A program made the translations under genes and the position numbers. From Bacteroidota bacterium (GTDB lineage: Bacteria > Bacteroidota > Bacteroidia > Chitinophagales > LD1), in contig CANJVG010000006.1 of NCBI GenBank assembly GCA_947478005.1, forward strand, positions 35 to 64,034: a stretch of 64,000 bases of DNA, given 5' to 3'. Under the pieces are notes generated by a model. It saw only the letters and a list, made by a program, of their open reading frames with translations, had not been told where the DNA came from and did no database searches. This document shows positions 1,864 through 64,000 of the stretch, piece after piece. Every line of letters starts with the position of its first letter. Position 1 is the first letter of the stretch.

Positions 1864-3681
1864 ATGAAGAAACATGTACTCCTTCTAATCGTGCTAAGCA
1901 TTTTTGCAGCCGATAATCTTTCCGCTCAACTTTCTGCCACTACCTCTTCCACTAACCCCAGTTGTGCCAATAATAATGGGGTAGCTACAGTAAACCCTGC
2001 GGGAGGCAATGCCTACACGTATAAGTGGAGCAACGGAGCTACCACCGCTTCTGCTACAGGTTTAGCGGCAGGAACCTATACCGTTACGGTTTATTCATCA
2101 GCGGGAACCGTTTGGGATACACTTTATCTCGAAACTTTTGATGCAACCCAAACTTGGACATTGAACATCTCTACCGGAACCAACGGTGCCGACCCTAATT
2201 TCTGGACTGTATCGGATGCAGAAGGTGGCGTTGCCCCTCCCGGTTGCGGTACAGCCAGCAACGGAAATAAGACGATGCACATTACTAGCGTTTTTAACTC
2301 TTCTGGTGGGGCTGCTTATGACGCAGGTGGCTTGTGTGGGTTTTATTTTTGTCCACAAACAAGCGCAGCTGCAGAGTCACCAAATATTGCCACTACCGGT
2401 GCTACCAATCTGGTGTTAAGCTACGATTTTATTGGTGGTGGCCAGGGGCTAACGGATAATGCATCAACGCTTTATAGTATTAATGGGGGTACTAATTTTA
2501 CTTCCATCGACCCTTCTCTAAAATCAGGAACTGCCGGTTGCGCTGGTCAAGGTAAATGGACCAAGCGTTCGCTTAACTTGCCGACAAACTGTAATAATTT
2601 AAACAACTTTAAACTGCGTTTTAATTGGGTGAATAATGATGACGGAGTAGGTACCGACCCATCTGTAGCCATTAATAATGTAATGATTCGCGATTCTTTG
2701 CCGGGTACTGCAGACTCTGTTGTAAAAACAGTTACGCTCACCTTGCCTGTAGGTCCTCACTTTGCAACCAATGCATTATCGGTAGCAAATCCAGGATGCA
2801 ATCAGTCAAACGGTTCCATCAATAATATGGGTGTAACTGGTGGTACTACTCCTTATTCGCTGGCATGGTCGCTGGGAGGTGTGCAGATTGGTACCTCTAA
2901 TTCTATTGCCAACCTAGGTGCAGGCACTTATACTTTTGAAGTAACCGATGGCAACGGTTGTGTTATTGACACAGCTTTTACCTTGGTACCCACAACAGCC
3001 GGTGGACCAACAGCGATTACAACCAATAAAGTAATTTTCTGCGCTTATGATACTGCAACTGTTTGTGTTACTAACACTACTAATATAGTTTCTTATGCCT
3101 GGAATTTGGGTGGTACAACCGCCTGTATTAAGGCAACTACTGCGGGCAACTACCGCGTAACTGTTACTGATAATAACGGTTGCACAGCAGTATCTAACCA
3201 GTTGACCATCTCTGTTTATCCGTTGCCTCCGGTTTCCATTTCAGTAAATGGCGACACGCTTACAGCCGTAGGCGCTGTATCCTACCAGTGGTATCGCAAT
3301 AATGTAATTATTCCCGGTGCGATTGACTCGATTTATAAAGCAGCAGCTCCCGGCTCTTATACCGTTAGAATTGGCGATTCCAATGGTTGTCAGGTGGTTT
3401 CAAACGCAGTGATTATTTCGGGTATAAATGATTTGAAAACTACACTTGATTTTGAGATTTATCCAAACCCAATCACATCCGGTAACTGGACATTGGCGGC
3501 TGCTAAAGAACTGATGGGCGCACAGGCTGAAATTGTAGATGTAAATGGAAGGCTGGTTTATAAAGCCGAAATTAATCAACTCAAGACAGAGATAAATACC
3601 GGTCAACTCTCGGATGGTATTTACTTTATTAAAATCAGCAGTGGCAAAACTACCGTAACCCGCAAGTTGATTAAACTATAA
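1864..3681 (+). CDS. T9SS-secreted protein with SprB/Ig-like Cys-containing repeats and a type A C-terminal sorting domain
   Basis: The signal peptide is MKKHVLLLIVLSIFAADNLSAQ. It has repeats of the form C..NG...V...GG..PY.Y.W and the C-terminus IYPNPITSG...GIYFIKI...KLIKL. Confidence 0.8.
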   Translation: MKKHVLLLIVLSIFAADNLSAQLSATTSSTNPSCANNNGVATVNPAGGNAYTYKWSNGATTASATGLAAGTYTVTVYSSAGTVWDTLYLETFDATQTWTLNISTGTNGADPNFWTVSDAEGGVAPPGCGTASNGNKTMHITSVFNSSGGAAYDAGGLCGFYFCPQTSAAAESPNIATTGATNLVLSYDFIGGGQGLTDNASTLYSINGGTNFTSIDPSLKSGTAGCAGQGKWTKRSLNLPTNCNNLNNFKLRFNWVNNDDGVGTDPSVAINNVMIRDSLPGTADSVVKTVTLTLPVGPHFATNALSVANPGCNQSNGSINNMGVTGGTTPYSLAWSLGGVQIGTSNSIANLGAGTYTFEVTDGNGCVIDTAFTLVPTTAGGPTAITTNKVIFCAYDTATVCVTNTTNIVSYAWNLGGTTACIKATTAGNYRVTVTDNNGCTAVSNQLTISVYPLPPVSISVNGDTLTAVGAVSYQWYRNNVIIPGAIDSIYKAAAPGSYTVRIGDSNGCQVVSNAVIISGINDLKTTLDFEIYPNPITSGNWTLAAAKELMGAQAEIVDVNGRLVYKAEINQLKTEINTGQLSDGIYFIKISSGKTTVTRKLIKL

Positions 3682-3841: not shown

Positions 3842-4519
3842 TTACAAACTCCAATCAATTACTCCCTTGCCTTGCTGTTTCAACAGTTCATTTGTTTTGG
3901 AGAAATGTCTGCAACCATAAAATGCCCCACCCGCAAGAGGGGAGGGGTGTGCGGCTTCCAACACAAAATGCTTGGTCGAATCAATCAATATATTCTTCGC
4001 CTTGGCAAAGTTTCCCCACAACAGGAATATGATACCCGCTTTCTCCTCCGATATTTTTTGAATCAAAGCATCCGTAAAGGTATGCCAACCGCAATTAGCG
4101 TGTGAATTGGCTTCACCGGCATTAACAGTTAGCGAGGCATTGAGCAACAACACCCCCTGCCTGGCCCACTTTTCCAAATTGCCATGCGTTGGCGGCTCTA
4201 TACCCAAATCAGTTTTTATTTCTTTAAATATATTTTTGAGTGATGGCGGAGCAACAACACCATATGGAACAGAGAAACACAAACCATGCGCCTGTCCCGC
4301 CCCGTGATAGGGGTCTTGACCGATAATGACTACTTTGACCTGATCAAACGGAGTAAGGTTAAATGCATTGAAAATAAGAGAGCCTTGGGGATATACTATT
4401 TTCCCTTTTGCTTTTTGCACCACTATAAACTGTTTGATACCCGAGAAATAGGGTTTCTGAAACTCCTCATTCAGAACTTTTTTCCAACTCTCCTCTATTT
4501 GAACGGCATCTGCGGACAT
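3842..4519 (-). CDS. ung: Uracil-DNA glycosylase, family 1
   Basis: The motifs GQDPYHGAGQAHGLCFSV and HPSPL are present. The start is moved to the internal MSADAV because the upstream extension looks like non-coding DNA. Confidence 0.9.
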   Translation of the reverse strand: MSADAVQIEESWKKVLNEEFQKPYFSGIKQFIVVQKAKGKIVYPQGSLIFNAFNLTPFDQVKVVIIGQDPYHGAGQAHGLCFSVPYGVVAPPSLKNIFKEIKTDLGIEPPTHGNLEKWARQGVLLLNASLTVNAGEANSHANCGWHTFTDALIQKISEEKAGIIFLLWGNFAKAKNILIDSTKHFVLEAAHPSPLAGGAFYGCRHFSKTNELLKQQGKGVIDWSL

Positions 4520-13704: not shown

Positions 13705-13975
13705 TTGGTCTGTTTTTTATGACTGATAGTTGGTTTTTAAAACCGCTATATTGTTTTCTTTATCCTTTATGGATGATTCTCCAACGGTATTCCCCTCAAC
13801 CACTTTCTTTGCTGAAATGCTGTGAAAGTTTCCTTCGTTACTGATGGTCTAACAGACGCAATCTTTACCTGCCATTCGCATTTTAAAAATTTGAATTAGG
13901 GATATTTGAATGGGAATGGTCGTTTTTATTGCAGAATCGAAACGTTTTAGAGGTGAATTGAAGGAGTTTACAGTT

Positions 13976-14206
13976 GAGAATAAGTATTCCTGAAACAGGA
14001 ATACTTATTCTCAACCCAGGAATAGTTATTCTCAGGATAGGAATAGTTATTCCTGTTTTAGAAATACTTATTCCTAAGTTAGGAGTACTTATTCTCGTTA
14101 CAGGAATAGATATTCTTGAAATAGGAATACTTATTCTCAACTCAGAAATAGTTATTCTCAGGATAGGAATAGTTATTCCTGTCTTAGGAATAACTATTCC
14201 TAAGTT
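13976..14206. repeat. Tandem array 1: 11 x 21 bp, consensus AGGAATA-NN-TATTCYY-N5
   Basis: Unit starts were indexed at 13976, 13997, 14018 ... 14186 with no phase drift. Three units are perfect 7-2-7 palindromes. Confidence 0.9.
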
Positions 14207-14506
14207 GTGTTGATGGCTTGCAAAGGCTTTACATTTACCTTCCTATGGTTGTAGCGAACGGTTGAAACATGGATGGCAGCGGCAGAAATAATAACTCCGA
14301 TGCACCGACTCTGGATGATTGCTATGCAAACAAGAAGGCGAATGTGCCAAACTAAAATCAGAACGCTCCGATTATCAGTTTCCGAATTTCAATGAATGGG
14401 TTTGTCCTTTGACCTCCTGTTCCCAAGAAACGGCTTTCTGTTTTTGTCTGACAGGGACTGCCTTTGAACACAGGCCATCTGCAACCATTCATCTCACATT
14501 TTAATC

Positions 14507-21693: not shown

Positions 21694-23520
21694 ATGGCAT
21701 CTAAATTAACAGGCGGATCTTTCTTACTTAAGAACACCAACATAGCCGATGTTTTTATTCCCGAGGAATTTACCGAGGAACAAAAAATGGTTTACAACAC
21801 CGTAAAGGATTTCATGCTGAAAGAAGTGCATGGACTCGGCATTGCCAAAGTAGCGGGTTTAGATGCCGAGAAGGATAAAGACCTGGTGATGGAGATTTTT
21901 AAGAAAGCATCGGCTCTTGGTTTGTGTGGAGTTTCGGTTGATGAAAAATATGGTGGTGGAGGATTGGATTTTAATACCGCTTTGCTTTTTACCGAAGGCC
22001 TTGCCGGTGGTTTTTCTTTTGCAACCACTATAGGGTGCCAAACTTCTATTGGTTCTTTACCCATCACCTGGTATGGCACCGAAGAGCAAAAACAAAAATA
22101 CTTACCGGGCATTGCAAGTGGCGAAAAGGGTTGTTCGTATTGTTTGACCGAGCCAAGTGCGGGCTCTGATGCCAACAGCGGAAAGACCCATGCGGTATTG
22201 AATGCCGAAGGCACTCACTACATTATGAACGGACAAAAGATGTGGATTACCAACGGTGGTTTTGCCGAGGTGTTTACGGTGTTTGCCAAGATTGATAAGG
22301 ACGAAAAACTTTCTGCCTTTATAGTGGAGAAAGACTTTGGAGGAATTTCGATAGGCAAGGAAGAAAAGAAGATGGGTATTAAGGCTTCCTCAACCGTGCA
22401 GGTTTTTTTCAATAATGTAAAGATTCCGAAAGAGAATTTGCTGGGCGAAAGAGGAAAGGGATTCAATATGGCGCTGAACATTCTGAACAGCGGACGTATT
22501 AAGATAGCTGCCGGTGGGGTAGGGGGGATGAAGTTCGGGATGGATAAAACAGTGGAGTATTGCAAAACAAGAATTCAGTTCAATAAACCTATTGCTGAGT
22601 TCGGAGCCATGAAACAAAAGCTTGGCATTATTGCTGCCAATCTGTTTGCGATTGAAGCAGGCGTATATCGCGTAGGTGCCGATGTAGATAAAAAGCACGA
22701 TGAGCTGTTGAAGAACGCCCGCCTGACTGACGCAGTCGGGCAGGGCACAAGCCCCAACGAAGCCAAGATTAACTCCATGCGCGAATACGCCATTGAGTGC
22801 GCTATATTGAAAGTGCTGGGTAGCGAGGCCATGTGCAACACCGGTGACGAAGCCATTCAGATATTTGGCGGCATGGGTTACAGTATGGAAACTGGTGTGG
22901 AGATGGCTTACCGCGATGCGCGCATTACCAAGATATATGAGGGCACCAACGAGATTAACAGAATGCTCACGCTGGCCGAGTTTTATAAACGCTCGTTCGT
23001 AACCAAGGAGTTGAAGATGGGCGATGCGAAGAGTTTTATTCCTTCTACTATTCTCAAAAACTTCAACCCCTTCAGTGGTGGCGGTTTCTTAGAAACCGAA
23101 TTTGAATTTGTAAATAACCTCAAAGCCATCTTCCTGATCATTACCGGTGCTGCGGGTGCTAAACTGAAAGAGAAACTGGTAGATGAACAGGAAATAGTCA
23201 TGAACCTGGCCGATATTCTTTCGATGGCTTTTGTTACAGAATCTGCTTTTCTGCGTGTGAAGAAACTGAGCGAGAAACCCGGTATGAACAAAGCAGAACT
23301 GGAGGTGAAGACCAAGATGGCGCAGTTGTATTTATACGATGCGCTGGATGTGGTTCGCAAATCGGCCAACAATGCTATTGACAGCTATGCCAAGGGAGCG
23401 GAGAAGGCCAGCCTGAAATACTTAATGCGCAGAATGCTGCGCAGTTACAACATCAACCCCAAGGATGTGCGCAGACAAGTGGCAGATTATATGTTGGAGA
23501 AGAACGGGTATAATTTTTAA
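21694..23520 (+). CDS. Long-form acyl-CoA dehydrogenase
   Basis: The ACAD N, M and C domains are recognisable (CLTEPSAGSD, WITNGG, YEGTNEI) and there is an extra C-terminal helical domain. Confidence 0.8.
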   Translation: MASKLTGGSFLLKNTNIADVFIPEEFTEEQKMVYNTVKDFMLKEVHGLGIAKVAGLDAEKDKDLVMEIFKKASALGLCGVSVDEKYGGGGLDFNTALLFTEGLAGGFSFATTIGCQTSIGSLPITWYGTEEQKQKYLPGIASGEKGCSYCLTEPSAGSDANSGKTHAVLNAEGTHYIMNGQKMWITNGGFAEVFTVFAKIDKDEKLSAFIVEKDFGGISIGKEEKKMGIKASSTVQVFFNNVKIPKENLLGERGKGFNMALNILNSGRIKIAAGGVGGMKFGMDKTVEYCKTRIQFNKPIAEFGAMKQKLGIIAANLFAIEAGVYRVGADVDKKHDELLKNARLTDAVGQGTSPNEAKINSMREYAIECAILKVLGSEAMCNTGDEAIQIFGGMGYSMETGVEMAYRDARITKIYEGTNEINRMLTLAEFYKRSFVTKELKMGDAKSFIPSTILKNFNPFSGGGFLETEFEFVNNLKAIFLIITGAAGAKLKEKLVDEQEIVMNLADILSMAFVTESAFLRVKKLSEKPGMNKAELEVKTKMAQLYLYDALDVVRKSANNAIDSYAKGAEKASLKYLMRRMLRSYNINPKDVRRQVADYMLEKNGYNF

Positions 23521-23550: not shown

Positions 23551-23594
23551 AAACAAAAAGCGTCCCGACATTTCTGCGGGACGCTTTTGTTTTA
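23551..23594. terminator. Bidirectional rho-independent terminator
   Basis: The stem AAAAGCGTCCCG / CGGGACGCTTTT is flanked by an A-tract and a T-tract. It lies between convergent genes. Confidence 0.7.
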
Positions 23595-61458: not shown

Positions 61459-63852
61459 TTACTGCTTCACAAGTTTCTTCGTCACTCTTCCGGTTTTGTT
61501 TTCAAGGGTGACGAAGTAAACGCCCGGAGATAGATTTCGGATGTCGAATTGCGGATTGCGCCCGCCCGACTGAACGTCATCAGTCGTTCGGGCGGGGATT
61601 TGAACAGCCGAATGCAATACTTCTCTTCCGGTGATGTCGGTAATCGTAAGATTGCTTCCAATCATGCTTTCATCAACACTTATTCGAACCGACTCAGTCG
61701 CAGGATTTGGATTCAATCCGAAATCCGCATTCTGAATTCCGAGATTGGCAACGCCTGTGGCAAGAGCGATTGTATTGCTCGTAGTATTCGTAACCACCGG
61801 ACTATTGAAATCGAAATAGATAAAGGCGGTGTTGTTGATGCTAGTGCCTATTGGCAGGTTGTCTTTGAGCTTGACTTTGTATTGCACATAGCCGCGGCTT
61901 AGTGGTTCGTTGGTGTTGCTGTCGGGGAGGTTGATGTTGGGGAAGTTGAAGCGGAGGTTGTTGCCTTTTAGCTGCACCATCGGTTGGTGGCTGTAGGCGA
62001 GTAGCTGAAAGCTGGCGGCATCTATATTACTATCGAGCGTATCGGTTACATAAATATGTTGCGCCTCGGCAGTGCCGGTGTTTTGGAAATGGATGGTGTA
62101 GGTAAGCCAATGGGTAGCGGTGTCTATATTACCTGCGGGGTAAACTTCTTTTTCATTAGGGTCCCAAGAACCAATTACGGTGAAGCAATGCGTAAGAATA
62201 TTATTGGCAGGGTTATTATCTCCGGCTATTGGGTTTACTATTAGGGTAAAACAAATCTGTGAACCCAACACAGCCGTAGTATCGGTAGCTACATTGATAT
62301 TAAAATCATGAAAGAAATTAACCGCACCAAAATCTGCAATGCTCCAGGTGATGGTATCGTTTACAATGCTTGTTGGTGTAAGTGCCCCGCTGGCAGCAGA
62401 AGCATAATGGGCTGCTCCGTTTATGATTAATTGAACACTGCCGCTGGTGCCTGCGGCACAGTGGGCACCATAAAAGTTGGTGGCATCGCCAGCGGAGACA
62501 TTTACTTTTCTGACGCGGCCCGGAACAAATCCACTATAAATACTTTGAGCAACTAAATCAAAACCCGGCTTGCAACGCAAACCAAAATTCATATCCGTAT
62601 CAAATGAATCGAGTGCAGTTATATTAGAAGTATAATAACCGCTATCGGGACAGGCAAATATGAAAGGCAGGTTGGTTGTATCAATCGAATAGGAATAGGT
62701 ACCTAAATCCGTATCGAAAGAATAGCTACCTGTTGGTATATTCTGTTGCTGTTGCAGGATTCCGTTTTGGTAGAGTTGCATTTTTACATTTAAGAAGGCA
62801 TTATTCTCTCCAGTATCATAGGAGCAATTGGCGTTACCATCTACATAAATGTTACCAGTGATATTCCAATAAACTGCGCAGCCATGAGTGTTGGAAACAT
62901 TACAGAGAGGAACAGTATTTAAGACCGGATAACTAGAAACATTGAATTGAGGATAATTAGGCAAACAGGTAATACCAGTGTTCCCGAAATTGAAATCCTT
63001 GATTTTTTTTAGCTGAGGCAAACAGAAAAGCTGTTGATTATTATGACAGTAGAAAACATTTAAAGAATCAGGCAATTCTGATAAAGAACTGAGTTGGTTG
63101 TAATAGCAATAAAGTTGTGTCAACGAATAAGGTAAGGCAGGTAAACTGCTTATTTGGTTATAAGAGCAATCAAGCCATGTTAACGAATTGGGCAAGACAG
63201 GTAAACTATTAAGCTGGTTGCTTTGGCAAACAAGCTGTGTCAACGAATGAGGTAAGGCAGGTAAAACGTTAAGTTGGTTGTGATTGCAAGTAAGACTCGT
63301 TAAAGAATTGGGTAAGGCTGGTAAACTTGTGAGTTGGTTGCTTTCGCAATATAGCGTAGTCAACGAATTAGGTAAGGTGGGCAAACTGGTGAGTGGGTTG
63401 TAAGAGCATCTAAGATATGTTAGCGAATTGGGTAAGGCAGGTAAACTGGTAAATTGGTTGTTATCGCACGAAAGTTGTCTCAAGAAATTGGGCAAGGTAG
63501 GTAAGCTGCTAAGTTGGCTGTTCCCGCACCAAAGCACAGTCAGCGAATTAGGCAAAGGAGGTAAAATGTTTAGTTGGTTGGCAACGCAAAAAAGCGTATC
63601 TAAATTATCAAAGTATTGTATGCCGGTGAGGTCAGTAATTTGTTGCCAGGAGCAGTCAATCCCACCTGCGCTTATTACGGCATTGCAAGTAGTATCCATA
63701 AAATTTCCATTCATACATGAGGAGAACCCATTTGTATTAAGCCATGCTCTAAAGTTTGCATCCGGAATACTCACCCACTGCGCTTTAGAGACAAAAGACA
63801 TTAGACACAAGACAGAGGACAATACAAGTGTTCTGAGGAGATTTCTTTGCAT
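61459..63852 (-). CDS. Leucine-rich-repeat protein (about 9-10 x 20-aa LPxLPxSLTxLxCxxNQLxS repeats) with a central DPNEK-containing beta-rich region and a T9SS type A sorting domain
   Basis: It has a signal peptide ending KAQ, LRRs over aa 76-275, and the C-terminus NPNPATES...GVYFVTL...KLVKQ. Confidence 0.8.
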   Translation of the reverse strand: MQRNLLRTLVLSSVLCLMSFVSKAQWVSIPDANFRAWLNTNGFSSCMNGNFMDTTCNAVISAGGIDCSWQQITDLTGIQYFDNLDTLFCVANQLNILPPLPNSLTVLWCGNSQLSSLPTLPNFLRQLSCDNNQFTSLPALPNSLTYLRCSYNPLTSLPTLPNSLTTLYCESNQLTSLPALPNSLTSLTCNHNQLNVLPALPHSLTQLVCQSNQLNSLPVLPNSLTWLDCSYNQISSLPALPYSLTQLYCYYNQLSSLSELPDSLNVFYCHNNQQLFCLPQLKKIKDFNFGNTGITCLPNYPQFNVSSYPVLNTVPLCNVSNTHGCAVYWNITGNIYVDGNANCSYDTGENNAFLNVKMQLYQNGILQQQQNIPTGSYSFDTDLGTYSYSIDTTNLPFIFACPDSGYYTSNITALDSFDTDMNFGLRCKPGFDLVAQSIYSGFVPGRVRKVNVSAGDATNFYGAHCAAGTSGSVQLIINGAAHYASAASGALTPTSIVNDTITWSIADFGAVNFFHDFNINVATDTTAVLGSQICFTLIVNPIAGDNNPANNILTHCFTVIGSWDPNEKEVYPAGNIDTATHWLTYTIHFQNTGTAEAQHIYVTDTLDSNIDAASFQLLAYSHQPMVQLKGNNLRFNFPNINLPDSNTNEPLSRGYVQYKVKLKDNLPIGTSINNTAFIYFDFNSPVVTNTTSNTIALATGVANLGIQNADFGLNPNPATESVRISVDESMIGSNLTITDITGREVLHSAVQIPARTTDDVQSGGRNPQFDIRNLSPGVYFVTLENKTGRVTKKLVKQ
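61561..61596. repeat. 36-nt GC-rich palindromic insert (CCCGCCCGA...TCGGGCGGG) in frame inside the sorting domain
   Basis: A perfect 9-bp outer stem plus an inner CTGA/TCAG pairing encodes PARTTDDVQSGG. It interrupts the heptamer tract 61533-61603. Confidence 0.8.
63027..63627 (-). repeat. Intragenic 60-bp tandem repeats encoding the LRRs
   Basis: Successive 60-nt sequence lines from 63121 to 63541 start with near-identical CAACGAATNRGGTAAGGC. Confidence 0.85.
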
Positions 63853-64000
63853 GAGGGTTTGGTTTTACGTTTAGTAAAAGTAAGATTTTTTGTTGCAGAG
63901 GTTATTTGTTGGGGTGGTGATGGGATTTTGTGTTTGCCGGTCAGACTGACGTCAGACCGGGGTTCTATTTCTTGGGAGGTGGATGGGATTTTTCTACATG

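Follow-up and report, generated by a model that had tools for sequence, protein, structure and literature searches.

What is a short GC-rich palindrome doing, in frame, inside the secretion signal of a bacterial leucine-rich repeat (LRR) protein? The locus lies in a 64,000-nucleotide (nt) stretch of Bacteroidota DNA (GCA_947478005.1, contig CANJVG010000006.1, positions 35 to 64,034 of the forward strand; referred to here as the window), in which an earlier note, made from the sequence alone, had described a 36-nt palindrome within a C-terminal sorting domain of the type IX secretion system (T9SS). Our analysis indicates that these 36 bp are very probably a solitary copy of a mobile DNA element that is very short and GC-rich and forms a hairpin. 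The features of the locus are as follows.

61459-63852, minus strand: gene for a 797-residue secreted LRR protein (LRR_4, DUF7619, and a T9SS type A sorting domain), assigned from domain matches and homologs.
61462-61710, minus strand: T9SS C-terminal sorting domain, residues 715 to 797, with the insert in the loop between the strands at residues 744 to 749 and 768 to 770 (Pfam, NCBIfam, and AlphaFold).
61561-61596, minus strand: GC-rich palindromic element of 36 nt, family 1, assigned from its sequence, its uniqueness, its fold, its absence from the closest paralogs, and at least 240 other loci.
61533-61560, minus strand: degenerate heptamer tract encoding RNPQFDIRN, on one side of the insertion site and outside the element (present in L003, L004, and L005, which lack the element).
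61597-61603, minus strand: fifth "heptamer," GATTTGA, representing Gln-Ile codons on the other side of the insert and, from DNA comparison, preexisting coding sequence.

Read directly from the plus strand, positions 61533 to 61560 are GATTTCG GATGTCG AATTGCG GATTGCG, positions 61561 to 61596 are CCCGCCCGA CTGA ACGTCA TCAG TCGT TCGGGCGGG (the whole 36-mer being CCCGCCCGACTGAACGTCATCAGTCGTTCGGGCGGG), and positions 61597 to 61603 are GATTTGA; the palindrome was thus described correctly to the base. The 36-mer can be read as an outer stem of 9 bp and an inner stem of 4 bp with a 4-nt bulge (TCGT) and a 6-nt loop or, alternatively, as a perfect 13 + 6 + 13 palindrome plus four extra bases. It occurs once in the window, and 100 shuffles gave no match with up to three mismatches allowed. 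The G+C content of the 36-mer is 69% (versus ~42% for the window), and its calculated folding energies are -13.1 kcal/mol as DNA (z score of -4.35) and, as RNA, -21.5 kcal/mol for one strand and -22.4 kcal/mol for the other, with all shuffled sequences folding worse. On the minus strand, the 36 nt encode exactly 12 residues (PARTTDDVQSGG, residues 753 to 764 of the LRR protein), which, as the earlier note stated, fall within the C-terminal sorting domain.

The C terminus of the LRR protein matches both Por_Secre_tail (PF18962; residues 715 to 795, 45.3 bits versus a cutoff of 27) and TIGR04183 (residues 715 to 797, 37.5 bits versus a cutoff of 23), so that both profiles for a T9SS type A sorting domain score above their curated cutoffs. 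The segment between the GREV and GVYF strands is 31 residues long, compared with 18 to 19 residues in the remaining three sorting domains that the window encodes, which agrees with the spacing previously noted. In an AlphaFold model of the whole LRR protein (45 aligned sequences; mean predicted local distance difference test [pLDDT] score of 86), pLDDT falls below 50 within the sorting domain only at residues 754 to 763, and the remainder of the domain is confidently modeled. The insert is therefore predicted to form a floppy, disordered surface loop between two strands, in which case the fold of the sorting domain, and presumably secretion, would survive its presence.

The 36-mer was added precisely to the coding sequence of the sorting domain, and no target bases were lost. 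In an alignment of the last 100 residues of the 60 best homologs of the LRR protein, the 12 residues are present only in the window protein and the nearly identical P0002 and P0011, whereas the closest proteins without the insert (P0003, P0004, P0006, P0009, and P0026) read HSAVQI followed directly by RNPQFDIRNL, with a clean 12-residue gap. The earlier note had proposed as one refuting case a 12-residue segment carried by all orthologs with nonpalindromic codons; only 3 of the 60 aligned homologs carry it. At the DNA level, exactly 36 nt are missing from L003, L004, and L005 between CAAATC and CGCAATC, with identical flanks; the boundary of the insertion is ambiguous by one C, and comparison with these three loci revealed no target-site duplication. 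P0002, which has the insert, and P0003 and P0026, which do not, come from the same metagenome and are thus paralogs. The 36-mer is identical at all 36 positions in the window, L001, and L002, although the surrounding 294 nt are only ~88% identical. By our own calculation, such conservation would arise by chance in about 1% of cases, which suggests either a constraint on the sequence of the element or recent copying.

The same comparison settles the status of the heptamers. The tract exists as written in the earlier note, but it is weak: it is ordinary coding sequence, and Tandem Repeats Finder reported no array there (score of 30). Because it is found in the insert-free paralogs, it represents a preexisting target site rather than a part of the element; in the insert-free L005, it is even more regular (CGCAATC CGCAATT CGCAATC CGCAATT). 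The length of the tract is constant in five homologous genes at the DNA level, and the encoded residues are constant in length in close homologs. The idea that the heptamers are a slippage site was accordingly rejected, as the units are degenerate and coding, occur without the insert, form no detectable array, and show no variation in length.

The window also contains a second copy. A search with the 9-nt arms, allowing one mismatch, located a related palindrome in a different gene.

22718-22744, plus strand: related 27-nt palindrome, family 2, CCCGCCTGACTGACGCAGTCGGGCAGG, adding ARLTDAVGQ in frame (arm similarity, no match in shuffles, and a gap in homologs).
21694-23520, plus strand: gene for a 608-residue acyl-coenzyme A (CoA) dehydrogenase, the host of the 27-nt element (homologs).

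The 27-mer and the 36-mer have 12 of 13 arm positions in common on each side, and a fuzzy scan of the window found only these two copies, with none in shuffles. The nine residues ARLTDAVGQ are missing from all 120 of the 120 best homologs of the dehydrogenase, including P0121, which is 97% identical and 599 (versus 608) residues long; the contig encoding P0121 shows a 27-nt gap relative to the window DNA and no duplication. Homologs with solved structures (3owa and 2z1q) likewise have a gap of 9 to 10 residues at this position. The 27-nt element is thus a fresh in-frame insertion into a housekeeping gene of the same window. One further site may belong here.

63936-63962, strand not assigned: possible third, diverged copy, GCCGGTCAGACTGACGTCAGACCGGGG, intergenic, sharing a 12-nt core (GACTGACGTCAG) with short variants of the family.

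This palindrome lies ~85 to 110 nt upstream of the start of the LRR gene, and its outer arms differ from those of the family. In 1.78 Mb of sequence, the 12-mer core occurs only in family members and at this site; a third, diverged copy is a possible reading.

We scanned one genome per species (Genome Taxonomy Database) with the pattern CCCGCCYGACTGN{1,12}CAGTCGN{0,4}GGCRGG, which covers both window copies. Metagenomes were scanned with a pattern that constrains the inner portion alone (GACTGAAYGNNNTCAGTCGTTCGGG). The genome scan yielded at least 119 loci (compared with about one chance match by our own estimate) and the metagenome scan at least 120, together at least 240 loci, so that other copies, whose absence the earlier note had named as part of a second refuting case, do exist. 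Carriers among the matches listed include many classes of Patescibacteria, Bacteroidota, Ignavibacteria, Planctomycetota, Chlorobiota, and one metagenome-assembled genome (MAG) of the Bdellovibrionales. The element was also found in two isolates, Larkinella arboricola DSM 21851 and Danxiaibacter flavus (both Bacteroidota), and in closed chromosomes (e.g., CP181398.1 and OY762937.1); a 1-kb contig binned as Nanoarchaeota that carries it is weak evidence for an archaeal host. Several MAGs have copies on several contigs, with at least five contigs in one MAG among the matches listed. Judging from these matches, the family is a previously unremarked one whose copies are scattered over many bacterial phyla at hundreds of sites with no relation to one another, among them essential genes and fragments of tRNA genes. 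We did not find it described in the literature searched (on palindromes of the candidate phyla radiation and on GIY-YIG nucleases with tRNAs and palindromes), and the arm strings appeared in the literature searched only as unrelated primers.

The consensus of family 1 is CCCGCCCGACTGAACGNNNTCAGTCGTTCGGGCGGG, with invariant stems and bulge and an unconstrained loop (types such as CGACTT, CGATGT, and CGACGT); length variants of 30, 33, 34, 35, and 38 nt occur. Family 2 is the 27-mer, which is identical at ~15 sites in other species among the matches listed, all with different flanks. In the metagenome scan, in which the outer arm was left free, the arm was CCCGCCC in 97 of 125 and CCTGCCC in 15 of 125 of the matches listed, and the 3' end was CGGG in 113. 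Arm changes in this set are one-sided transitions without compensatory double changes, which indicates that the sequence itself is conserved (through the youth of the copies or protein recognition) and not the pairing alone; inner-stem variants TACCG/CGGTA retain pairing. The median G+C content of the host loci is 43%.

Several conventional identities were rejected for this family. A phage or plasmid vehicle is contradicted by the scarcity of the element in viral contigs (4 matches in 2.9 million) and by its absence from the plasmid and isolate-phage collections scanned. A known RNA family was rejected because Rfam gave no match at E values of up to 10. The copies do not form CRISPR repeats, as they are single and dispersed, with only two loci having two copies (91 and 120 nt apart), both in tandem tRNA-like units. 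Nor are they the terminal inverted repeats of a larger transposon, since we found no solitary half-sites bounding a larger element and few loci with two copies within 8 kb.

The reading frames of the intragenic copies are informative about how they are tolerated. Of 27 elements inside open reading frames (ORFs) of at least 200 codons, 26 span a multiple of three nucleotides, versus 67 of 95 elsewhere (Fisher P = 0.004); the lone exception lies near a doubtful N terminus. Variants of 28, 31, 32, 34, 35, and 38 nt occur almost exclusively outside genes. Given these lengths, the intragenic elements appear to be translated, i.e., read through by the ribosome, rather than spliced out. The 36-mer has two frames that contain TGA, and its other four are open. 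Among the matches listed for the metagenomes, 39 of 123 copies are in long ORFs; their frames (loci L130 to L249) read PARTT (25 copies), PARLN (8), PPERL (4), and RPTE (2). Of these 39 intragenic copies, 33 lie exactly between host codons, reading PAR...SGG (Pro-Ala-Arg...Ser-Gly-Gly, a short polar peptide ending in glycines), and the orientation relative to the gene is the same in 29 (29 to 10). The preference for one phase and one orientation may stem from selection acting on the encoded peptide or from insertion that is strand specific. Among the mutually unrelated host proteins are TypA/BipA, DNA polymerase I, Mfd, an acyl-CoA synthetase, a class I aminoacyl-tRNA synthetase, TruB, and a GH130 enzyme; when the DNA polymerase I copy is aligned with Taq polymerase, the gap is exactly 12 residues. 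This frame pattern and the unrelated, often essential nature of the hosts argue against both removal at the RNA level and a function specific to sorting domains. Together with the empty-site paralogs and the other copies, these results support the proposal of the earlier note that a miniature palindromic element is tolerated in frame within a secretion signal.

Insertion is precise wherever filled and empty sites could be paired: in six pairs (i.e., the sorting domain, the acyl-CoA dehydrogenase, L090, L116, L061, and L064), duplication amounts to at most 1 nt. The dinucleotide GA is in excess beside the element (50 of 248 outward dinucleotides), with much of this excess coming from tRNA sites. 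Several copies, including that in the sorting domain, are flanked by short direct repeats of the GATTnnn type. A preference for the loops of existing hairpins was rejected, because 23 of 126 junctions fall in predicted loops, compared with 16 to 25 in ten control sets. There are striking individual cases of insertion into hairpin loops (L050, L095, L015, and the nested L076); in the last of these (positions ~1200 to 1290), a copy of the element sits in the loop of a degenerate copy, flanked by CCCGCCCGACTGCTGA on one side and CGCAGTCATGCGGACGGGG on the other.

Outside protein genes, a different kind of setting involves broken tRNA genes. Many copies are flanked by sequence resembling a tRNA D arm (e.g., GTAGCTCAGTTGGTTA on one side and GAGCGC on the other), in both orientations. 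In L090, L116, L061, and L064, the element is in a 5' tRNA fragment located tens of bases upstream of an intact, element-free copy of the same tRNA. Functional tRNAs with a D-loop intron were rejected as an explanation, as excision of the element restores no tRNA recognized by ARAGORN and most of the carriers examined are 5' fragments. In L010, L048, L065, L094, and L109, the fragment with the element is separated from the intact tRNA by an ORF of 80 to 97 codons that encodes a GIY-YIG nuclease. An all-against-all comparison of proteins encoded beside the element identified GIY-YIG as the sole recurrent family; in the metagenome loci, 13 of the 16 GIY-YIG ORFs among the matches listed are within 150 nt of the element, and in most of the cassettes in which the element could be located, it ends 13 to 26 nt upstream of the GIY-YIG start codon, in either orientation. 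As a guard against ascertainment bias, four cassettes were sampled by protein homology alone, independently of the element, and in all four (4/4), the broken tRNA copy contains a GC-rich palindrome whose arms are of the same kind.

L254: CCCGCCCGTACCGAACGGTACGTTCGGGCGGG in the D loop, with the same outer arms and bulge and a compensatorily swapped inner stem.
L252: long-loop variant at the start of the D arm.
L258: CCTGCCTGCCGGCAGGCAGG in the D loop.
L250/L251: CCTGCCCGAATGACATCGGTCAGGCGGG in the T loop, present as a tandem pair in L251.

Because all four homology-sampled cassettes carry such a palindrome, the GIY-YIG nuclease would be the best candidate for the mobilizing enzyme. A GC-rich hairpin between a tRNA fragment and a GIY-YIG ORF is also present in L130 and L158, which were retrieved through a distant copy of the element. 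The link between nuclease and palindrome is systematic across the loci compared, and its meaning could be of several kinds. The nuclease may mobilize the palindromes, by analogy with the role that REP-associated tyrosine transposases (RAYTs) are thought to have for repetitive extragenic palindromic (REP) sequences. The palindrome may instead be a working part of the cassette (through disruption of the target site, stabilization of mRNA, or blocking of deletion between the tRNA repeats), or tRNA loops may be favored targets in which insertions are kept only in dead tRNA copies.

Some details of these cassettes were observed in passing. In every cassette examined, a GC-rich palindrome occupies the D loop or T loop of the broken tRNA copy. 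The end of the GIY-YIG ORF often overlaps the first bases of the intact tRNA, and two GIY-YIG ORFs are in tandem in L251 and L261. Tandem units resembling tRNA-Val, with the element in the D loop, occur in L055 (4357 to 4512), L051 (2531 to 2657), and L112 (~4150 to 4275). In L055 and L112, the 5' acceptor strand is unpaired with the 3' strand, and in L112, small hairpins (CCGCCAAAGGCGG and CCGCCTCTGGCGG) replace the 5' acceptor strand and the D stem; these units may be pseudogenes or unusual tRNAs.

How might such an element spread? We favor a mechanism in which it would move as a DNA hairpin or cruciform recognized by a trans-acting nuclease or recombinase. The candidate enzyme would be the family of ~80-residue GIY-YIG nucleases whose genes lie within duplicated pieces of tRNA genes, in a relation to the palindrome resembling that of REP sequences to the RAYT transposase, and the element would have no function for the host protein, which would merely tolerate it. 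On a bolder and more tentative view, which we consider doubtful though worth stating, the palindromes would be nonautonomous partners of an undescribed, "REPtron-like" selfish system, whose autonomous form is an ~80-residue GIY-YIG gene in a duplicated tRNA piece and which, across Patescibacteria, Bacteroidota, Ignavibacteria, Planctomycetota, and possibly DPANN archaea, routinely adds loops of 9 to 12 residues between codons of essential proteins. A number of observations weigh against the mobile-element interpretation. Movement and the part played by the enzyme are both deduced from sequence comparison. Genomes seem to hold few copies each, viral contigs gave just 4 matches, and the plasmid and phage collections scanned gave none. 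The 64-kb window contains neither GIY-YIG genes nor tRNA genes, and the flanks of the element reveal no clear target consensus beyond the excess of GA. The association with GIY-YIG could also be indirect, with the D loop as a preferred target and only the broken tRNAs made by the cassettes retaining the insertion; the presence of the element in both orientations beside GIY-YIG genes fits independent insertions as well as it fits a fixed cassette.

The strongest competitor, although an unlikely one, is that an HUH/Y1 transposase acting on single-strand DNA (IS200/IS605 or RAYT type) mobilizes the element, with the proximity to GIY-YIG genes being a by-product of a shared preference for tRNAs. 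Precise insertion without target duplication would be expected of such an enzyme. The hairpin form of the element, its conserved asymmetric bulge, and its free loop also fit, since the biochemistry of IS608 and RAYTs shows such features in the substrates of Y1 transposases. The bias in intragenic orientation (29 to 10) is that expected of strand-specific insertion, and the occurrence of the element in both orientations beside GIY-YIG genes also suits a bystander role for the nuclease. However, no transposase-like ORF recurs beside the elements, GIY-YIG being the only recurrent neighbor family, and there is neither a GTAG/CGTC tag nor a conserved flanking tetranucleotide. The element moreover has a single hairpin rather than two ends, and to our knowledge, a single hairpin is not an established substrate for Y1 transposition.

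The remaining explanations are all far less probable. Removal of the hairpin after transcription, as a minimal intron or processing site that is phenotypically silent, is suggested by the very stable RNA hairpin (approximately -22 kcal/mol) and by the occurrence of the element inside tRNA-like sequences, but we regard it as highly improbable: intragenic lengths are multiples of three, with variants of other lengths almost only outside genes; only stop-free frames are used, with a strong preference for the between-codon phase; most of the tRNA carriers examined are truncated duplicates upstream of an intact, element-free copy; and Rfam gave no match. In length, in the constraints on frame and phase, and in the lack of an Rfam match, the element does not appear to behave as a processed intervening sequence. 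An equally poor prospect is that the 12 residues are an adaptive loop extension of a sorting-domain subfamily, with palindromy being incidental or derived from local template switching. The identity of the insert at 36 of 36 positions in three genes from different assemblies, with flanks ~12% diverged, and the score of the insert-bearing domain as Por_Secre_tail would fit this idea, which is nevertheless largely refuted by the dispersed copies, since the same nucleotides and peptide recur in unrelated proteins such as DNA polymerase I, BipA, and TruB, and noncoding DNA has copies as well. The closest paralogs in the same metagenome also lack the insert, and the AlphaFold model shows it as unstructured. 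An artifact of assembly or sequencing (an adapter or a chimeric join) might be suspected because almost all carriers are MAGs, but the element comes from independent projects with different assemblers, two isolate genomes, and closed chromosomes, with a varying loop and preserved reading frames, and we know of no adapter sequence that matches it; this explanation can practically be dismissed.

Among described systems, the Rickettsia palindromic elements (RPEs) were the analogy drawn in the earlier note. RPEs are palindromic repeats that lie in frame in many unrelated functional genes, where the peptide is tolerated, and they encode no transposase (PMC10969869, PMC3733652). The analogy holds for the way of working, as the present element likewise encodes no transposase and is inserted in frame into unrelated functional genes, but it does not extend to family membership. 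RPEs are ~100 to 150 bp long (published ones being ~150 bp [PMC10969869]), compared with 36 nt for the element (27 to 38 nt for its variants), and are confined to Rickettsia and its relatives, whereas the element is found in Patescibacteria, Bacteroidota, Ignavibacteria, Planctomycetota, and others. Judged by the published descriptions of RPEs, there is no sequence resemblance, and the element is also found in tRNA gene fragments beside GIY-YIG genes.

REP sequences are closer in form: the element shares with them a GC-rich imperfect palindrome of 20 to 40 bp with a free loop, present in many copies, and its arrangement with GIY-YIG genes is similar to the flanking by REPs of the gene for their proposed trans-acting enzyme. 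Both kinds of palindrome are mostly intergenic and are sometimes located inside genes, such as those for tRNA synthetase, TruB, and DNA repair (PMC3733652). In contrast to REPs, the element has no GTAG/CGTC tag or conserved tail (flanks of 94 and 124 copies), its stem is longer (13 bp plus the 4-nt bulge), and its copies are mostly single rather than inverted dimers. It is also associated with a GIY-YIG nuclease rather than with a RAYT (a Y1 transposase), a comparison of immediate neighbors that leaves a distant RAYT possible, and its sequence is common across phyla, whereas REPs are species specific. Unlike miniature inverted-repeat transposable elements, it shows no target duplication of >1 nt in the six filled/empty pairs and no half-sites.

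Yeast mitochondrial GC clusters are short, GC-rich palindromic sequences in an AT-richer genome that are polymorphic between strains (PMC4478555). The element resembles them as a short GC-rich palindrome in an AT-richer genome; it differs in that GC clusters are organellar and eukaryotic and are unrelated in sequence. GC clusters can sit in frame within a protein gene (var1), and their insertion sites are AT-rich, with short duplications. A parallel for the cassettes is SegB of phage T4, a free-standing GIY-YIG homing endonuclease whose gene lies among tRNA genes (PMC2330249). The location of a GIY-YIG gene among tRNA genes suggests, in both cases, nuclease-driven inheritance of the surrounding DNA. 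SegB is nonetheless larger and has a DNA-binding part, whereas the GIY-YIG proteins considered here have ~80 residues and little beyond the catalytic domain, and its locus includes neither a duplicated tRNA fragment nor a palindrome.

In-frame short palindromic repeats have been described chiefly in Rickettsia, apart from occasional REP examples elsewhere, and how they move is unsettled. The element described here occurs in phyla that are very far apart, the Patescibacteria with their tiny genomes among them, and thereby offers a compact, sequence-defined system for hairpin transposition, the tolerance of proteins for random loops, and the crossing of phylum boundaries by DNA. The link to GIY-YIG genes in broken tRNA copies supplies a concrete and testable candidate enzyme. 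For annotation, the family explains odd "PAR...SGG" insertions of 9 to 12 residues in metagenomic proteins, as well as tRNA-like fragments missed by tRNA finders.

Other repeats were noted in the window and the compared loci. Intergenic tandem GC-rich palindromes of 37 nt (TGACCGGTATGCGGCCACGACTGGCTGGCCCCGGTCA and TGGCCGATGTGCGGCTACTGCTGGCTGGCCTCGGCCA) lie upstream of the insert-free paralog in L003 and L004 (9365 to 9443). A different GC-rich palindromic repeat (CCCGCCCGCCTGCCTGAACTGCCGAACGGCA..CAGGGATGA) occurs in L008 (~3368 to 3410) and L099 (~440 to 480), both from one Bacteroidota MAG. At positions 13970 to 14210 of the window, there is a dense array of nested inverted and direct repeats with the unit GGAATA(G/C)TTATTC(C/T) (e.g., GTTGAGAATAAGTATTCCTG and CAGGAATACTTATTCTCAAC, 20 nt and 100% complementary), which is unrelated to the GC-rich element. 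A terminator-like hairpin, AGCGTCCC(G)ACATTTCTGCGGGACGCT, flanked by runs of A and T, follows the acyl-CoA dehydrogenase gene (23559 to 23585), and a nearly identical hairpin follows the LRR gene in L001 (12584 to 12609) and L002 (5075 to 5100); its presence at differing loci may reflect a further family of small repeats or a terminator module that these loci have in common.

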